The position numbers and the translations under genes were made by a program. The notes beneath the pieces were generated by a model, which did not search any database, was not told where the DNA came from, and saw only the letters and a program-made list of their open reading frames with translations. DNA of 64,000 bases from Escherichia phage BYEP02. This document shows, one piece after another, positions 28,158 to 49,178 of this stretch (position 1 is the first letter of the stretch; each line of letters opens with the position of its first letter). The stretch lies in sequence record OR757454.1. The stretch is one strand, 5' to 3'.

Positions 28158-28244
28158 GCGAGAATGGTCAAATTGGTAAAGGCACAGCACTTAAAATGCT
28201 GCGGAATGATTTCCTTGTGGGTTCGAGTCCCACTTCTCGCACCA
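28158..28244 (+). tRNA. tRNA-Leu (anticodon TAA), type II
   Basis: Manual fold: acceptor gcgagaa/ttctcgc, anticodon loop cttaaaa, long variable arm, T-loop ggttcgagtcc, CCA encoded. Confidence 0.8.
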
Positions 28245-28249
28245 AATTT

Positions 28250-28323
<74 letters not shown>

Positions 28324-28477
28324 ATTTAATTTACTCCGTGTAGCTCAGTTTGGTAGAGCGTCTGCTTTGGGAGCAGAATGTCGCAGGTTCAAATCCTGCA
28401 ATTTAATTTACTCCGTGTAGCTCAGTTTGGTAGAGCGCCTGATTTGGGATCAGGAGGTCCAAGGTTCAAATCCTTGT
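28324..28477. repeat. 77-bp tandem unit covering tRNA-Pro; first 37 bp identical, remaining 40 bp diverged with compensatory stem changes
   Basis: atttaatttactccgtgtagctcagtttggtagagcg then tctgc..gcaga / cgcagg..cctgc versus cctga..tcagg / caagg..ccttg. Confidence 0.85.
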
Positions 28478-28484
28478 ATGGAGA
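28411..28484 (+). tRNA. tRNA-Pro (anticodon TGG); a partial divergent duplicate of its 5' half lies in the upstream repeat copy 28324-28400
   Basis: Anticodon stem-loop cctga-tttggga-tcagg, T-arm caagg-ttcaaat-ccttg, acceptor ctccgtg/tatggag (two G-U pairs); directly abuts tRNA-Ser. Confidence 0.7.
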
Positions 28485-28486
28485 CT

Positions 28487-28576
28487 GGAGGCGTGGCAGA
28501 GTGGTTTAATGCACCGGTCTTGAAAACCGGCAGTCGCTCCGGCGACTCATAGGTTCAAATCCTATCGCCTCCGCCA
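28487..28576 (+). tRNA. tRNA-Ser (anticodon TGA), type II
   Basis: Acceptor ggaggcg/cgcctcc, anticodon loop cttgaaa, long variable arm, T-loop ggttcaaatcc, CCA encoded. Confidence 0.8.
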
Positions 28577-28686
28577 GTTTTGCTGATTTAGCTCAGTAGG
28601 TAGAGCACAGTCGCTCCGGCGACTCATAGGTTCAAATCCTATCGCCTCCGCCAGTTTTTGCTGATTTAGCTCAGTAGGTAGAGCAC
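28532..28686. repeat. 77-bp tandem duplication spanning 3' half of tRNA-Ser and 5' half of tRNA-Thr (1-bp indel between copies)
   Basis: agtcgctccggcgactcataggttcaaatcctatcgcctccgccagtttt(t)gctgatttagctcagtaggtagagcac twice. Confidence 0.9.
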
Positions 28687-28735
28687 CTCACTTGTAATGA
28701 GGACGTCGGCGGTTCGATTCCGTCAATCAGCACCA
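28660..28735 (+). tRNA. tRNA-Thr (anticodon TGT)
   Basis: Acceptor gctgatt/aatcagc, anticodon loop cttgtaa, T-loop ggttcgattcc, CCA encoded; intact only via copy 2 of duplication 28532-28686. Confidence 0.78.
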
Positions 28736-28736
28736 A

Positions 28737-28811
28737 GGCCCTGTAGCTGGAAGGTTCAAGCAAGCGACTCATAATCGCCAGATGGTGGTTCAATTCCACC
28801 CAGGGCCACCA
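28737..28811 (+). tRNA. tRNA with anticodon CAT (Ile-lysidine type as in T4, or Met)
   Basis: Acceptor ggccctg/cagggcc, anticodon loop ctcataa, T-arm ggtgg-ttcaatt-ccacc, CCA encoded. Confidence 0.7.
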
Positions 28812-28820
28812 AATTAATTT

Positions 28821-28907
28821 GGGGAGTTATCCCGTAGAGGTAGCGGTGTGGACTGTAAATTCATTGTCATTGCGACTCGGGTGGTTCGACTCCACCACTC
28901 CCCACCA
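28821..28907 (+). tRNA. tRNA-Tyr (anticodon GTA), type II
   Basis: Acceptor ggggagt/actcccc, anticodon loop ctgtaaa, long variable arm, T-arm ggtgg-ttcgact-ccacc, CCA encoded. Confidence 0.65.
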
Positions 28908-28911
28908 ATTT

Positions 28912-28986
28912 GGATGTGTAGCTCAATGGCAGAGCGATCGCCTGTTAAGCGATTGGTTATAGGTTCGAATCCTATCACGTCCGCCA
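28912..28986 (+). tRNA. tRNA-Asn (anticodon GTT)
   Basis: Acceptor ggatgtg/cacgtcc, D-arm gctc-aatggca-gagc, anticodon loop ctgttaa, T-arm atagg-ttcgaat-cctat, CCA encoded. Confidence 0.75.
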
Positions 28987-29100
28987 AATTTGTGACAACT
29001 GTCACATTAATATCTACTTGACGCGATTATAGGGGTTGAACTGATCACTCTTCTCTTAATTTCGTGTGAAGACATCTTGATTGTTGGAGTAGGTATTAAT

Positions 29101-29166
29101 GTGGCCGTAGTTCAGTTGGTAGAACTCGAGATTGTGATTCTCGTAGTCATGGGTTCGACTCCCATC
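29101..29166 (+). tRNA. tRNA-His (anticodon GTG)
   Basis: Acceptor gtggccg/cggtcac, D-arm gttc-agttggta-gaac, anticodon stem-loop cgaga-ttgtgat-tctcg, T-arm atggg-ttcgact-cccat. Confidence 0.7.
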
Positions 29167-29170
29167 GGTC

Positions 29171-29246
29171 ACCCCAATTACGGGGCATAGCTCAGAAGGA
29201 AGAGCAAGGACCTTCTAAGTCCTAGGTCGTAGGTTCGATCCCTACT
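29171..29246 (+). tRNA. tRNA-Arg (anticodon TCT)
   Basis: Acceptor cggggca/tgcctcg, D-arm gctc-agaaggaa-gagc, anticodon loop cttctaa, T-loop ggttcgatccc, CCA encoded. Confidence 0.75.
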
Positions 29247-29274
29247 GCCTCGACCAATTATAAGTGAGGAAAAT

Positions 29275-29886: not shown

Positions 29887-29934
29887 AACACTTGCCTTAG
29901 CAGGTGGAACCCCGACAAGGTTGCCGCAAGGCTT

Positions 29935-44580: not shown

Positions 44581-45191
44581 ATGAAACGATTAGTATTAGA
44601 AGTTAGTTCATTTTTTGGTGAATTGGCTATAGAAAAAGTAAATAATATGTATCGTTTGACGCAAGAAGACGATATGCTATATTTTACGCCTAGCGAAATT
44701 ATTCATTTAACCCAAATTGAAAAACCTTACACTGATAAAATTGTAAGCATTAATGATGAGCATAAAATTCATTTCTATTCTTTATGCCCAGGATTTAACA
44801 TTGAAAGCGAGTCAATATGCTTATCAGTTATCCATTGGGATAGTTTTATAGCTAAGATTAAATATTTTTATTATTCTAATGAAAGAAAACATAGTTTAAA
44901 ATGGCTCAAAAATTGCAATGCTATTATTACTAACGCTTGCAATCAGAATGATGAAACTGTTTTAAACATAGTTTAAAATGGCTCAAAAATTGCAATGCTA
45001 TTATTACTAACGCTTGCAATCAGAATGATGAAACTGTTTTAAATGTATCAAAATGTTATGAAGATGGAGATGTCTTAACTATTCGTCAAATTGATGATTT
45101 TCGAGCGCATATTGTCACATTTACCAAAGACGAAGCTATTGCGTTAAAGACTTATCTTGATTCTGTCATTCCAACTATGATTTCAAAGTGA
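44581..45191 (+). CDS. Hypothetical protein (~177 aa); frameshifted by 77-bp duplication 44890-45043
   Basis: MKRLVLEVSSFFGELAIEKVNNMYRLTQEDDMLYFTPSEIIHLTQIEKPY...; C-terminus ...TKDEAIALKTYLDSVIPTMISK readable past the duplication. Confidence 0.5.
44890..45043. repeat. 77-bp tandem duplication inside gene 44581..45191
   Basis: catagtttaaaatggctcaaaaattgcaatgctattattactaacgcttgc... twice. Confidence 0.9.
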
Positions 45192-45197
45192 GGAAAT

Positions 45198-45719
45198 ATG
45201 TTTATTTCAAGTGGAAGCGGTTTAATTCGTGTTGAATTTAAAAATGACATCTTTCTTAGTCAAGGAGATGATATTATTAAAATGAGTTATGACGAAATCA
45301 AGAAAATTTGTCATGCTCTTGAAAGTCATGGAAAGGAAAATGCTACTATCGATATAGGTGATTTATGGGTGACACTTTATGAAGTATCCGAAGGATTTAA
45401 CATTGAAGATGAAAACAACATTTTAGCTATTGATAAAAGAAGTGATTTGTTTGATGTATTAAAAGTTTATGAACAGTCAAATGGTGGAAGAAAAGCTGTA
45501 TTGATTTATCAAAAACCACATTCGTGTGGAACTGCTTCAATCATTTCAAATATTGAAGATGAAACTGATACTTATATGTGTGTTTTAAAAGCCGGTGGTG
45601 ACCGTCATCCGGATTTTATTTCTATTCGTCAAAACAATGGAGAAATTTCATTATCAAAATCAGAAGCTGAAGCTATGATTAAGTATTTAACAACCGTTAC
45701 GCCTTCAATGAAAGGATGA
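45198..45719 (+). CDS. Hypothetical protein (173 aa)
   Basis: ORF MFISSGSGLIRVEFKNDIFLSQGDDIIKMSYDEIKKICHALESHGKENATIDIGDLWVTLYEVSEGFNIEDENN... Confidence 0.55.
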   Translation: MFISSGSGLIRVEFKNDIFLSQGDDIIKMSYDEIKKICHALESHGKENATIDIGDLWVTLYEVSEGFNIEDENNILAIDKRSDLFDVLKVYEQSNGGRKAVLIYQKPHSCGTASIISNIEDETDTYMCVLKAGGDRHPDFISIRQNNGEISLSKSEAEAMIKYLTTVTPSMKG

Positions 45720-46189
45720 TTATAATTATGATTATTAATGAAAACTCTTGGCACTATAAATTATTCAAATTGTTTAACGATGAATGGCAACGACCTAAGA
45801 CACTGTGCGCGTATTTTTGGTCTATTGTTATTCCTACATTTTTCGTTTCTTTTTTCGGATGTACTATACTCGTAGGTCTAACTATTATCTGCGCAGAAAT
45901 CATGCAGAAATGGCTTATTTTTGGTAGTTTATGGACTCTTATTCCATCAGCATTTATACTTGCCATTTTGCTTGTTTTACTTATTATCGGTTCATTTGTT
46001 ATTCCTGCACAACTGCGTGAAAAATATAAAGATTATAAATGGAAAAAGGATTATGCTTTACACGTAGAAAATATTGATAGGGCGTATAAAGGTTTACCTC
46101 CTATTCAACCTAAGAAATCGATTATCGTCGAATTTTTAAAAGCTCGTAAAGCTAAAGTATGTCCTGTTATTGAATATAAGGCTGAATGA
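45716..46189 (+). CDS. Integral membrane protein (157 aa)
   Basis: ORF with hydrophobic helices ...TLCAYFWSIVIPTFFVSFFGCTILVGLTIICAEIMQKWLIFGSLWTLIPSAFILAILLVLLIIGSFVIP... Confidence 0.55.
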   Translation: MIIIMIINENSWHYKLFKLFNDEWQRPKTLCAYFWSIVIPTFFVSFFGCTILVGLTIICAEIMQKWLIFGSLWTLIPSAFILAILLVLLIIGSFVIPAQLREKYKDYKWKKDYALHVENIDRAYKGLPPIQPKKSIIVEFLKARKAKVCPVIEYKAE

Positions 46190-47276
46190 TGAAAACAGTA
46201 ATGAAAAGCTATTTTGGTAGTCATCTTTATGGAACTTCTACTCCAGAATCTGATGTAGATTTTAAAGAAATCTTTGTTCCTCCTGCTCGTGATATTCTTA
46301 TTGGAAATGTTAAAGAGCATATGAGCAAAAACACTAACAACACATCATCTAAAAACACTAAAGATGATATTGACCATGAACTATACAGTCTTAAGTATTT
46401 CTTTAAATTAGCAGCAGATGGTGAAACTGTAGCATTGGATATGCTCCACACTCCACCTGAACTAGTCTTAAATATTTCTTTAAATTAGCAGCAGATGGTG
46501 AAACCGTAGCATTGGATATGCTTCACACTCCACCTGAACTAGTGGTTAAATCTGATTTGCCTGATGTGTGGAAGTTTATTCAAGACAACCGTTCTCGTTT
46601 TTATACGACTAACATGAAATCCTATTTAGGATATGTCCGTAAGCAAGCTTCTAAATATGGCGTCAAGGGTTCTCGTTTGGCTGCATTACGTGATGTATTG
46701 AAAGTAGTTAATCAAATCCCTGAGCAATGGATTGATTACCAAGAAGATGGTTCTATTAAGCAGCGTCGTACTAAAGTTGAAGATATTAAGCATCGTCTTC
46801 CAGAAAACGAATTCTGTGAATGGGTGTTCCATAATCATGAGAAAACAGGCCCACAAACGTTCTACACTGTGTTGGGTCGTAAATATCAGACAACGCTTTC
46901 TCTTATTGAGCTTAAGCAGTCACTGAACAAATTAGATGCTGAATACGGTGAACGCGCTCGTAAGGCCGAAGCCAATGAAGGCATTGACTGGAAAGCTCTG
47001 AGCCATGCCTGCCGTGGTGGACTCCAACTATTGGAAATTTACAAAACTGGTGACTTGGTTTATCCACTCCAAGATGCTCCATTTATTCTCGACGTGAAGT
47101 TGGGTAAACACCCATTTAAAACAGTTCAAGAGTTTTTGGAAGATGTGGTCGATCAAGTAGAAGCAGCATCTACTGAAGCTTCTAAGAACGGTATGCAGCA
47201 AAAAGTAGACATGGGTTTCTGGGATGACTTCCTTGAGAAGGTTTATCTTGAAAACCACCGAAGCTATTATAAATGA
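46186..47276 (+). CDS. Nucleotidyltransferase-like protein (pol-beta superfamily motif), ~337 aa; frameshifted by 77-bp duplication 46390-46543
   Basis: N-terminal GSHLYGTSTPESDVDFKEIF matches the GS-x(9-13)-D-x-D/E nucleotidyltransferase signature; later acidic motif ETVALDMLH. Confidence 0.5.
46390..46543. repeat. 77-bp tandem duplication inside the nucleotidyltransferase-like gene
   Basis: cttaa(g/a)tatttctttaaattagcagcagatggtgaaac(t/c)gtagcattggatatgct... twice. Confidence 0.9.
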
Positions 47277-47278
47277 TA

Positions 47279-47303
47279 GGGAGCCCGAAGGCTCCCTTTT
47301 TTT
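47279..47303 (+). terminator. Rho-independent terminator
   Basis: gggagcccgaaggctccc + ttttttt after the stop at 47276. Confidence 0.75.
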
Positions 47304-47327
47304 ATTTCAAAAATTTTTCACAAAACT

Positions 47328-47357
47328 GTTTACAAGCATAAAGCTTTATGGTACTAT
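47328..47357 (+). promoter_or_regulatory. T4 early-type promoter
   Basis: tttttcacaaaactGTTTACaagcataaagctttatggTACTATacaac. Confidence 0.6.
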
Positions 47358-47393
47358 ACAACTATCAAAACAAACACTTAAACGGAAAACAAA

Positions 47394-47543
47394 ATGAAAA
47401 TTACACCAATTGAAGTAAAAAAGTTGATTGATACAGAAGAAATTTCAGAGTGTTTTGAAAGTTTCTTAGAAGACGCAACTGAAGATAACGCGGTTTATCT
47501 CGCCCAGAAAATTATCGAAACTTATTTGGAGAAGAATCAATGA
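47394..47543 (+). CDS. Hypothetical small acidic protein
   Basis: MKITPIEVKKLIDTEEISECFESFLEDATEDNAVYLAQKIIETYLEKNQ. Confidence 0.4.
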   Translation: MKITPIEVKKLIDTEEISECFESFLEDATEDNAVYLAQKIIETYLEKNQ

Positions 47544-47803
47544 CAGTTTACGTAGATGTTTTAATGAATCATGGATGGAAACTTCGCGGTCATCCAACTA
47601 AAAATTGTCATATGTTCACTGATGGAGATATTGAAGAGCTTCACGAAATGGCAGAAGCAATAGGAATGAAACGTTCTTGGTTTCAAGATAAACGCATTAA
47701 ACATTATGACTTACGTGCAAGTCGTCGTCAAAAAGCTATAGAACTTGGCGCCGTAGAAGTATCGAGGCGAGAAGCAGTAAAAATTTGGCGAAAATTAAAA
47801 TAA
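47540..47803 (+). CDS. Small conserved protein (DUF4031-like N-terminus MTVYVD...), 87 aa
   Basis: MTVYVDVLMNHGWKLRGHPTKNCHMFTDGDIEELHEMAEAIGMKRSWFQDKRIKHYDLRASRRQKAIELGAVEVSRREAVKIWRKLK. Confidence 0.45.
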   Translation: MTVYVDVLMNHGWKLRGHPTKNCHMFTDGDIEELHEMAEAIGMKRSWFQDKRIKHYDLRASRRQKAIELGAVEVSRREAVKIWRKLK

Positions 47804-47806
47804 ATT

Positions 47807-47836
47807 GTTTACATGGTCTGTAGTTGTTGATACTAT
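47807..47836 (+). promoter_or_regulatory. T4 early-type promoter
   Basis: GTTTACatggtctgtagttgttgaTACTAT. Confidence 0.55.
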
Positions 47837-47874
47837 AGACCTATCAAAACAAATGAGTAAATTGGAGATACAAA

Positions 47875-48075
47875 ATGACTACTTTGAATAAACGTTTCGG
47901 TAAAGCTAAATCTGGTTGTGCAGCTGAACGTCGTTATGTTTTCGCTCAGTTAGAAGATGTAGAGTATCAGATTAATCAAGTTCACATTACTGGTATCGAG
48001 CCTATGTGTGGCCTTGAAGCTCTTCGTGAAGTTCGTGACGGGTATCGTCGTGACATCGAAGAAATGTCAAAATAA
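47875..48075 (+). CDS. Hypothetical small protein
   Basis: ORF MTTLNKRFGKAKSGCAAERRYVFAQLEDVEYQINQVHITGIEPMCGLEALREVRDGYRRDIEEMSK. Confidence 0.45.
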   Translation: MTTLNKRFGKAKSGCAAERRYVFAQLEDVEYQINQVHITGIEPMCGLEALREVRDGYRRDIEEMSK

Positions 48076-48132
48076 GTATACAAACTGATAGGACTATGTT
48101 ATAGTAGTCCTATCAAATCATTGGAGAATAAA

Positions 48133-49178
48133 ATGAAAACTGTAACTATCAATAAGGGTATCTACTTCGGTAAAGAAATCTCTGGAACTTTTGAGCTCTT
48201 AGGCGAATGGTTCCCAGATAATGCTCCGGTAGATGCACAAGGAGATGGTAAAGTTTTTGTTGAAATTGACGGTAAACGTCGCGGTGTTTGGGTTTACAAA
48301 TCAGACATTTCATATGATGGTGTAAAAGTTGAAGAAGTTAAAGAATCGTATGAAGATATGAAAACCCGCATTAATAAAAGATTTAATGTTATGGGAATGA
48401 TGACGAATGGTATTATTAATGGAAACATTCGTTCATTAATTATCTCTGGTGCGGCGGGTATTGGTAAAACGTATTCTTTAGATAAAGCTTTGAATAAAGC
48501 AAATGATAATGGATACATTGAATATAAAAGCATTAACGGTAAAATCTCTGGTATTGGTCTTTATGAGCAGCTTTGGAATAATCGTGAAGAGAATTCTGTC
48601 CTTTTGATTGATGATGTGGATGTTTTCTCTGATATGGACATTCTTAATCTTCTAAAAGCCGCTCTGGACACTGGAGAGACCCGTAAAGTCTGCTGGAGCA
48701 CTGCATCTTCTTACTTAGAAGAAAAAGGCATTGAGCGTGAGTTTGAATTTAAAGGAACGATTGTTTTTATCACAAACGTTGACATTGACCGCGAATTAGA
48801 CCGTGGTACTAAACTTGCTCCACACTTACAAGCATTAGTGTCCCGCTCAGTTTATTTGGATTTGGGTGTTCATACTAATGAAGAAATTATGGTCAGGGTT
48901 GAAGATGTTATTCTTTCAACTGACATGATGCAAAAGCGCGGTCTTTCTACACTAATGAAGAAATTATGGTCAGGGTTGAAGATGTTATTCTTTCAACCGA
49001 CATGATGCAAAAGCGCGGTCTTTCTGATGAAGAAACTTATAAAGCATTATCATGGATGAAAGTCAATGTTAACCGTTTACGCAATGTTTCACTGCGTACT
49101 GCACTTTATCTTGCTGACTTTATTATGACCGACAAAAACGGCTGGCAAGAAATCGCTGAGGTTACTCTTCTGAAATAA
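48133..49178 (+). CDS. AAA+ family ATPase, ~322 aa; frameshifted by 77-bp duplication 48874-49027
   Basis: Walker A ISGAAGIGKTYSL, Walker B VLLIDDVD, sensor-like FITNVD; ORFs 48121..49005 + 48966..49178. Confidence 0.6.
48874..49027. repeat. 77-bp tandem duplication inside the AAA+ ATPase gene
   Basis: actaatgaagaaattatggtcagggttgaagatgttattctttcaac... twice. Confidence 0.9.

Follow-up and report, generated by a model that had tools for sequence, protein, structure and literature searches.

The nrdC.11 gene of Escherichia phage BYEP02: a probable RlaP-family nucleotidyltransferase with a candidate role in tRNA repair

RlaP enzymes and the nrdC.11 gene

RNA repair was first discovered in phage T4. 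For the RlaP family of nucleotidyltransferases (NTases), the activity of two members, from P. fluorescens and P. aeruginosa (PfRlaP and PaRlaP), is described in an unreviewed preprint of December 2025 by Carruthers, Fatma and Huang (10.64898/2025.12.29.696909). Specifically, the two enzymes add 1–2 NMPs to RNA 3′-OH ends in vitro, do not use 3′-phosphate RNAs as substrates, and act preferentially on the 5′ half of a mimic of cleaved tRNA, with single-stranded RNAs also serving as substrates in vitro (10.64898/2025.12.29.696909). The crystal structure of RlaP comprises an NTase domain and a helical domain, and the discussion of the preprint itself lists unresolved problems with the model (10.64898/2025.12.29.696909). 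T4 NrdC.11 is named there as an RlaP "of unknown function" and is assigned to a separate SSN cluster (5, not 1a; 10.64898/2025.12.29.696909). Iyer and colleagues predicted that phage RlaP proteins restore, prior to ligation, nucleotides that have been cut out by nucleases such as RloC (PMC7824862). T4 tolerates deletion of the nrdC.11–mobD.3 block, and nrdC.11 is hence dispensable in T4 (PMC9825161); a literature search by the gene name "nrdC.11" returned no functional data. The NTase encoded by nrdC.11 is thus already known, being annotated as such and placed in RlaP in the literature, and nrdC.11 is a well-conserved T4 gene from a family whose activity has been described only in the December 2025 preprint.

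In the stretch of BYEP02 DNA that we analysed (64,000 nt of sequence record OR757454.1; hereafter, the window), the corresponding gene lies in the T4 tk–nrdC region and is written as two open reading frames on the + strand, one at 46186–46488 (100 aa, with N-terminus MMKTVMKSYFGSHLYGTSTPESDVDFKEIF) and one at 46512–47276 (254 aa). ATG start codons are present at 46186 and 46189, and the stop codon is at 47274–47276. Between the two frames, a 77-nt sequence is present in two head-to-tail copies that are identical at 74 of 77 positions (Table 1), within a repeated block spanning 46387–46551; since 77 is not a multiple of 3, the reading frame breaks in the sequence as written. An earlier note on this DNA had described gene 46186–47276 as frameshifted by a duplication at 46390–46543, which is the same feature in another register.

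Deleting either copy yields an open frame. Without the extra copy, the gene is 1011 nt long. Its product has 336 aa if translation begins at the second ATG (337 aa if it begins at 46186); the 336-aa form is 100% identical to YP_009625153.1 of Escherichia phage slur03, annotated "nucleotidyltransferase", and 99% identical to the T2/T4 cluster representative. The protein matches PHROG 388 with an E value of ~1e-136 to 2e-136; T4 nrdC.11, located between mobD and nrdC.10, is likewise annotated "nucleotidyltransferase" and assigned to PHROG 388. The NTase open reading frame is uninterrupted in all 78 related viral loci. The intact BYEP02 gene is orthologous to T4 nrdC.11 and is the same gene as the Tequatrovirus orthologs, in the same position between the tk/rI/mobD region and nrdC.10, and is set apart from them only by the artefactual 77 nt and a few synonymous changes. 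The sequence immediately upstream differs, in that T4 has the homing endonuclease gene mobD, whereas the BYEP02 window has a small membrane-protein open reading frame.

Table 1. Coordinates of nrdC.11, its active-site codons, and other features of the window
Feature	Position	Strand	Basis or remark
nrdC.11 ortholog, very probable RlaP-family nucleotidyltransferase gene	46189–47276	+	Identity of repaired product; PHROG and Pfam matches
Codons for G10-S11 through D22-x-D24 (pol-beta NTase signature)	46216–46260	+	Homolog conservation
Codon for D62 (third acidic residue)	46372–46374	+	Homolog conservation
Copy 1 of 77-nt overlap	46387–46463		End of left contig (segment 44964–46463)
Copy 2 of 77-nt overlap	46464–46540		Start of right contig (segment 46464–48948)
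Upstream ORF, 157 aa, with two strongly hydrophobic segments	45716–46189	+	No Pfam match; stop overlaps NTase start (ATGA)
Two tandem paralogs of T4 y05I-like putative transcription factor	44581–45191, 45198–45719		PF24449 and PF24448
Terminator-like hairpin AGGGAGCCCGAAGGCTCCCT plus T run	47278–47304	+	Directly after NTase stop codon
Promoter-like site TTTACA-17-TACTAT	47329–47357		After the hairpin
DUF4031 gene	47540–47803		Among small ORFs between nrdC.11 and nrdC.10
nrdC.10 homolog, 322 aa after repair	48133–49178		Split by 77-nt junction at 48872
10 tRNA genes	28158–29256		Leu, Gly, Pro, Ser, Thr, Met, Tyr, Asn, His, Arg
53 junction sites	437–63773		E.g. 437, 1634, 2042, 44887, 46387, 48872, 53654; 81-nt at 29887 and 50854

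Active site, fold and family

The repaired protein matches the Pfam RlaP profile (PF10127) with a score of 44.2 bits (cut-off 23; E 2.5e-11), the match being confined to residues 7–135 and to profile positions 23–142 of 249; RlaP is one of the families in which the earlier note had proposed to look. An exhaustive HMMER search returned 3322 cluster representatives at E ≤1e-3, 818 of them at E ≤1e-30. We aligned 136 diverse full-length homologs, with 34–55% identity, of which 135 match PF10127 themselves. In this alignment, G10 and S11 are present in all 136 homologs, D22 and D24 in 135, and position 62 is Asp in 132 and Glu in the remaining four, confirming that the N-terminal pol-beta-superfamily motif recognised in the earlier note is real and not a chance resemblance. 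Near-invariant basic and aromatic residues are also found in the C-terminal part of the protein, namely K130, Y131, R137, R230, K243, H247, R250, and K278. D62 falls in the same alignment column as the Asp that is conserved in canonical RlaP.

The AlphaFold2 model (pLDDT 95.2, pTM 0.86) has an alpha/beta NTase core, followed by helices at 99–150, a five-strand beta insertion at 154–208, and helices at 213–335, including a terminal helix at 316–335. The earlier note's description of the region after the motif as a helical domain of ~250 aa is accordingly only approximate, given the beta insertion between the two helical stretches. The catalytic acids are located on the expected strands of this high-confidence model: D22 and D24 at the start of strand 23–30, and D62 in strand 61–67.

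Profile–profile alignment with canonical short RlaP (hhalign) gives a probability of 92.5% and an E value of 4.7e-7 over residues 4–139 only, with no profile match for the C-terminal ~200 residues beyond residue 139. In the model, NrdC.11 appears to share with canonical RlaP the general layout of an NTase domain, a helical domain and a terminal helix, but it is ~80 residues longer and contains the five-strand beta insertion. Judged from these profiles, the protein is a divergent "long" form of RlaP, with a catalytic domain clearly homologous to that of the canonical enzymes and a C-terminal region of ~200 aa that is specific to its clade; these C-terminal 200 residues should be the part that binds substrate. 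NCBIfam and PADLOC yielded no usable family for the protein, and searches of the PDB with the single sequence and with a profile, in a copy of the PDB without an RlaP structure, retrieved no meaningful relative. Many phage "nucleotidyltransferase" models in BFVD match the model over its full length; phage RlaP-type models in BFVD also align over the full length, with low TM-scores (0.38–0.46 for PaBG). Taken with the conserved residues, the profile match makes it very probable that the protein belongs to the RlaP family of NTases and has kept its active site intact.

The Hailong protein HalB (PDB 9dbh) and the NTase-like protein 3c18 have only 12–15% identity to NrdC.11, for which the Pfam and PADLOC searches revealed neither a sequence-family match to them nor a defence-system context. 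Kanamycin, lincosamide and other aminoglycoside nucleotidyltransferases (ANT(4′), LinB, and AadA), whose substrates are small molecules, give TM-scores of 0.2–0.37 and have no detectable sequence relationship to NrdC.11.

Genomic context and proposed role

In 78 phage loci, the NTase gene sits in the usual T4-type gene order, in the company of rI, tk, y05I-like genes, and small open reading frames, with the nrdC.10 P-loop NTPase gene downstream in 37. Neighbourhood clustering detected no RNA-repair gene near the NTase gene in any of the 78; the pseT gene, encoding Pnkp, is also present in T4 and in many relatives that carry nrdC.11, and in T4 is located ~78 kb from it. Canonical RlaP differs in this respect, since the phage nrdC.11 gene does not adjoin a ligase gene.

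Full-length homologs are also encoded in bacterial and archaeal genomes, and the 80 best such loci (32–54% identity) have a different context. RtcB, Pnkp or Hen1 is encoded within 6 kb in 14 of the 80, a frequency far above chance because repair genes are rare in genomes; some bacterial loci have the operon order Hen1–Pnkp–long NTase–short RlaP, and the long/short pair is sometimes located inside RtcB operons. The association of canonical RlaP with RtcB and with Pnkp/Hen1 thus extends to the bacterial members of the NrdC.11 clade itself. A canonical short RlaP paralog is present in 25 of the 80 loci, immediately downstream in nearly all of them (median gap −3; PF10127 246 bits), and in most such loci the stop codon of the long gene and the start codon of the short gene overlap (L081–L160; e.g. 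L132 2244–7802, L151 1251–7799, and L112 3709–13381). The bacterial long form therefore often co-occurs with canonical RlaP and does not take its place, which suggests that long and short RlaP constitute a module of two NTases, with T4-like phages retaining just the long one. A tblastn search at E ≤1e-3 found no canonical short RlaP in T4-like phages; one is encoded by jumbo phages, phiKZ-like and other, that infect Pseudomonas, Burkholderia, Caulobacter, and Brevundimonas (records H51–H75; in phiKZ, AF399011.1 233829–234518).

The most likely role of NrdC.11 is that of a terminal RNA nucleotidyltransferase supporting phage tRNA repair as a counter-defence. According to this proposal, NrdC.11 would be an active, metal-dependent NTase that lengthens RNA 3′-OH ends by 1–2 nt; its main candidate substrates would be tRNA halves, or trimmed tRNA ends, made by host anticodon nucleases; and, after addition, phage Pnkp and RNA ligase (RNA ligase 1) would reseal a full-length, functional tRNA. 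We give a probability of roughly 0.6 to the complete reading, in which the gene is an nrdC.11 ortholog encoding an RlaP-type NTase that supports tRNA repair and its frameshift is artefactual. By analogy with the characterised enzymes, NrdC.11 probably adds nucleotides to RNA 3′ ends. The tRNA-repair hypothesis is already in the literature, and the window adds nothing to it. At the level of the family, nonetheless, the statement in the earlier note that function cannot be assigned was too pessimistic, RlaP enzymes having a defined activity on RNA 3′-OH ends in vitro. Against the proposal stand the restriction of homology with the characterised enzymes to the N-terminal ~140 residues, the position of the phage gene, which is beside no RNA-repair gene and far from pseT in T4, the product of the best structural match, HalB, which makes oligodeoxyadenylate and does not extend RNA, and the unreviewed status of the work on RlaP.

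A narrower version, which we advance tentatively and consider somewhat unlikely, is that long-form RlaP serves in counter-defence specifically by putting back the nucleotide or nucleotides that RloC and other "smart" anticodon nucleases cut out. Were it true, the phage Pnkp/Rnl1 pathway could rebuild a functional tRNA after such excision, and NrdC.11 would be a third component of the classical T4 tRNA-repair system; the clade-specific C-terminal region would then be responsible for substrate recognition, a task that in bacteria may be shared with the partner short RlaP.

Also unlikely, though resting on the same family chemistry, is a terminal RNA nucleotidyltransferase with another target, which would rebuild the 3′-CCA ends of the phage's own tRNAs or alter the stability of host or phage transcripts by adding tails to them. 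The 10 tRNA genes clustered in the phage genome and the use of single-stranded RNAs by RlaP in vitro would suit such targets, but the bacterial neighbourhoods point instead to ligase-dependent repair of internal breaks.

It is very improbable that NrdC.11 works like HalB or a CD-NTase, releasing a free nucleotide or oligonucleotide as a signal or decoy against host defence; in one version of this idea, oligodeoxyadenylate would keep a Hailong-type channel closed. The single observation in its favour is the generic fold match to HalB, with which NrdC.11 has 15% identity and shares a generic minimal-NTase fold, whereas its sequence family is RlaP and its bacterial homologs are found in RNA-repair operons and not beside effectors. 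In addition, no CD-NTase family was found in the Pfam search of the protein and its homologs, PADLOC gave no match at E up to 1, including its CBASS cyclase models, and no effector gene is present near the NTase gene in the window or in the phage neighbourhoods; the cyclic-nucleotide-signalling context raised in the earlier note is thus not borne out. T4 has mobD in place of the 157-aa membrane open reading frame upstream, which directly adjoins the NTase gene in only ~11 of the 78 phage loci. A functional connection between this open reading frame and the NTase is improbable, and linkage that is inconsistent across phages tells against a Hailong-like pairing of the two.

The other context suggested there, toxin–antitoxin, fares no better: that the enzyme is an MNT-type protein nucleotidyltransferase, AMPylating and thereby neutralising a host HEPN or other RNase toxin in the manner of the MntA antitoxin, is highly improbable, since the score against the MntA model (NF047752), 13.2 bits, falls short of the cut-off of 60, the resemblance to HEPN is non-specific (unrelated four-helix bundles, including CheA P1 and designed proteins, give the same Z), no gene for HEPN or another partner toxin is nearby (the neighbours encode y05I-like proteins, the membrane protein, DUF4031, and the P-loop NTPase), and the bacterial context is one of RNA ligases, not toxins.

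Assembly origin of the duplication and local features

Tandem Repeats Finder and an independent scan identified 53 tandem duplications in the 64-kb window, 51 of them exactly 77 nt long and two of 81 nt, and no other tandem period between 60 and 99 nt. The junctions have a median spacing of ~1.1 kb, roughly one per 1.2 kb, and the copies at each differ at 0–9 positions, which suggests that two or more related haplotypes are present in the data. The segments between junctions are colinear with slur03, the closest relative, and consecutive segments overlap in that genome by 77 nt (by 81 nt at one junction), so that the overlap sequence is single-copy there. In particular, positions 34–24000 of the window equal slur03 73771–95658 plus exactly 27 × 77 nt, in 28 pieces. 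This region encodes baseplate, tail-fibre, fibritin and terminase genes, and such genes are frameshifted by 77-nt duplications too; an extra 77 nt in every one of these essential structural genes would be fatal to the phage.

With 150-nt reads, the default k-mer sizes of SPAdes run up to 77, and neighbouring contigs taken from a graph of that kind share k nucleotides at their ends. When such contigs are joined untrimmed, exactly the observed 77-nt pattern results, and the window is a chain of contigs joined in this way. In a strict de Bruijn graph the overlap should be exact; our guess is that the inexact overlaps reflect a mixed population of related phages or contigs that were polished separately.

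The junction in nrdC.11 conforms to this pattern. In slur03, the alignment of the left segment ends with the very 77 nt that open the right segment; the left segment differs from slur03 at seven synonymous positions between 46242 and 46446, all of them third codon positions: three are located within the duplicated copy and four just upstream (46242–46326), and five of the seven carry the T4 allele. Positions 46464–48120 of the window are identical to slur03. With mostly T4 alleles among the differences on the left side and slur03 sequence on the right, two natural haplotypes meet at the joint. The frameshift is thus present in the sequence as written, as the earlier note had it, but as a product of contig concatenation across the window and not as a property of the gene, and we regard its artefactual origin as virtually certain.

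That the duplication is instead a real mutation, making nrdC.11 a pseudogene or two separate proteins in BYEP02, is scarcely credible: the duplication is indeed present as written, and the three differences between its copies argue against a trivial copy-paste, but its period recurs 51 times in 64 kb, each time as an overlap of colinear segments, the frameshifts in essential structural genes would not be tolerable in a viable phage, the junction between copies 1 and 2 occurs as one piece in none of 589 phage records carrying the gene, and the three differences are synonymous natural alleles, as expected where two haplotypes meet. A pseudogene or a programmed frameshift in nrdC.11 is rejected on the strength of the window-wide 77-nt pattern. 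By extension, any "frameshift", "duplication" or "split gene" that falls on one of the 53 junctions is to be discounted.

Several neighbouring features are affected in the same way. The first of the y05I-like paralogs is interrupted by the junction at 44887, and the count and spacing of the tRNA genes as written may be distorted by two 77-nt junctions inside the cluster (~28319 and ~28531). The nrdC.10 homolog, once repaired, is a P-loop NTPase with only sub-threshold Pfam matches to STAND/AAA families and no match in PADLOC.

Downstream, the strong hairpin and T run that follow the stop codon, and the promoter-like site after them, indicate that the NTase gene closes a transcription unit. A 26-nt element, TGGTACTATACAACTATCAAAACAAA, is repeated in this region, with copies at 47329–47374 and 47808–47853 that are 88% identical; each coincides in part with a TTTACA-17-TACTAT promoter-like site that has a TG upstream of it, and the two look like paired early promoters and leaders for the small open reading frames between nrdC.11 and nrdC.10.
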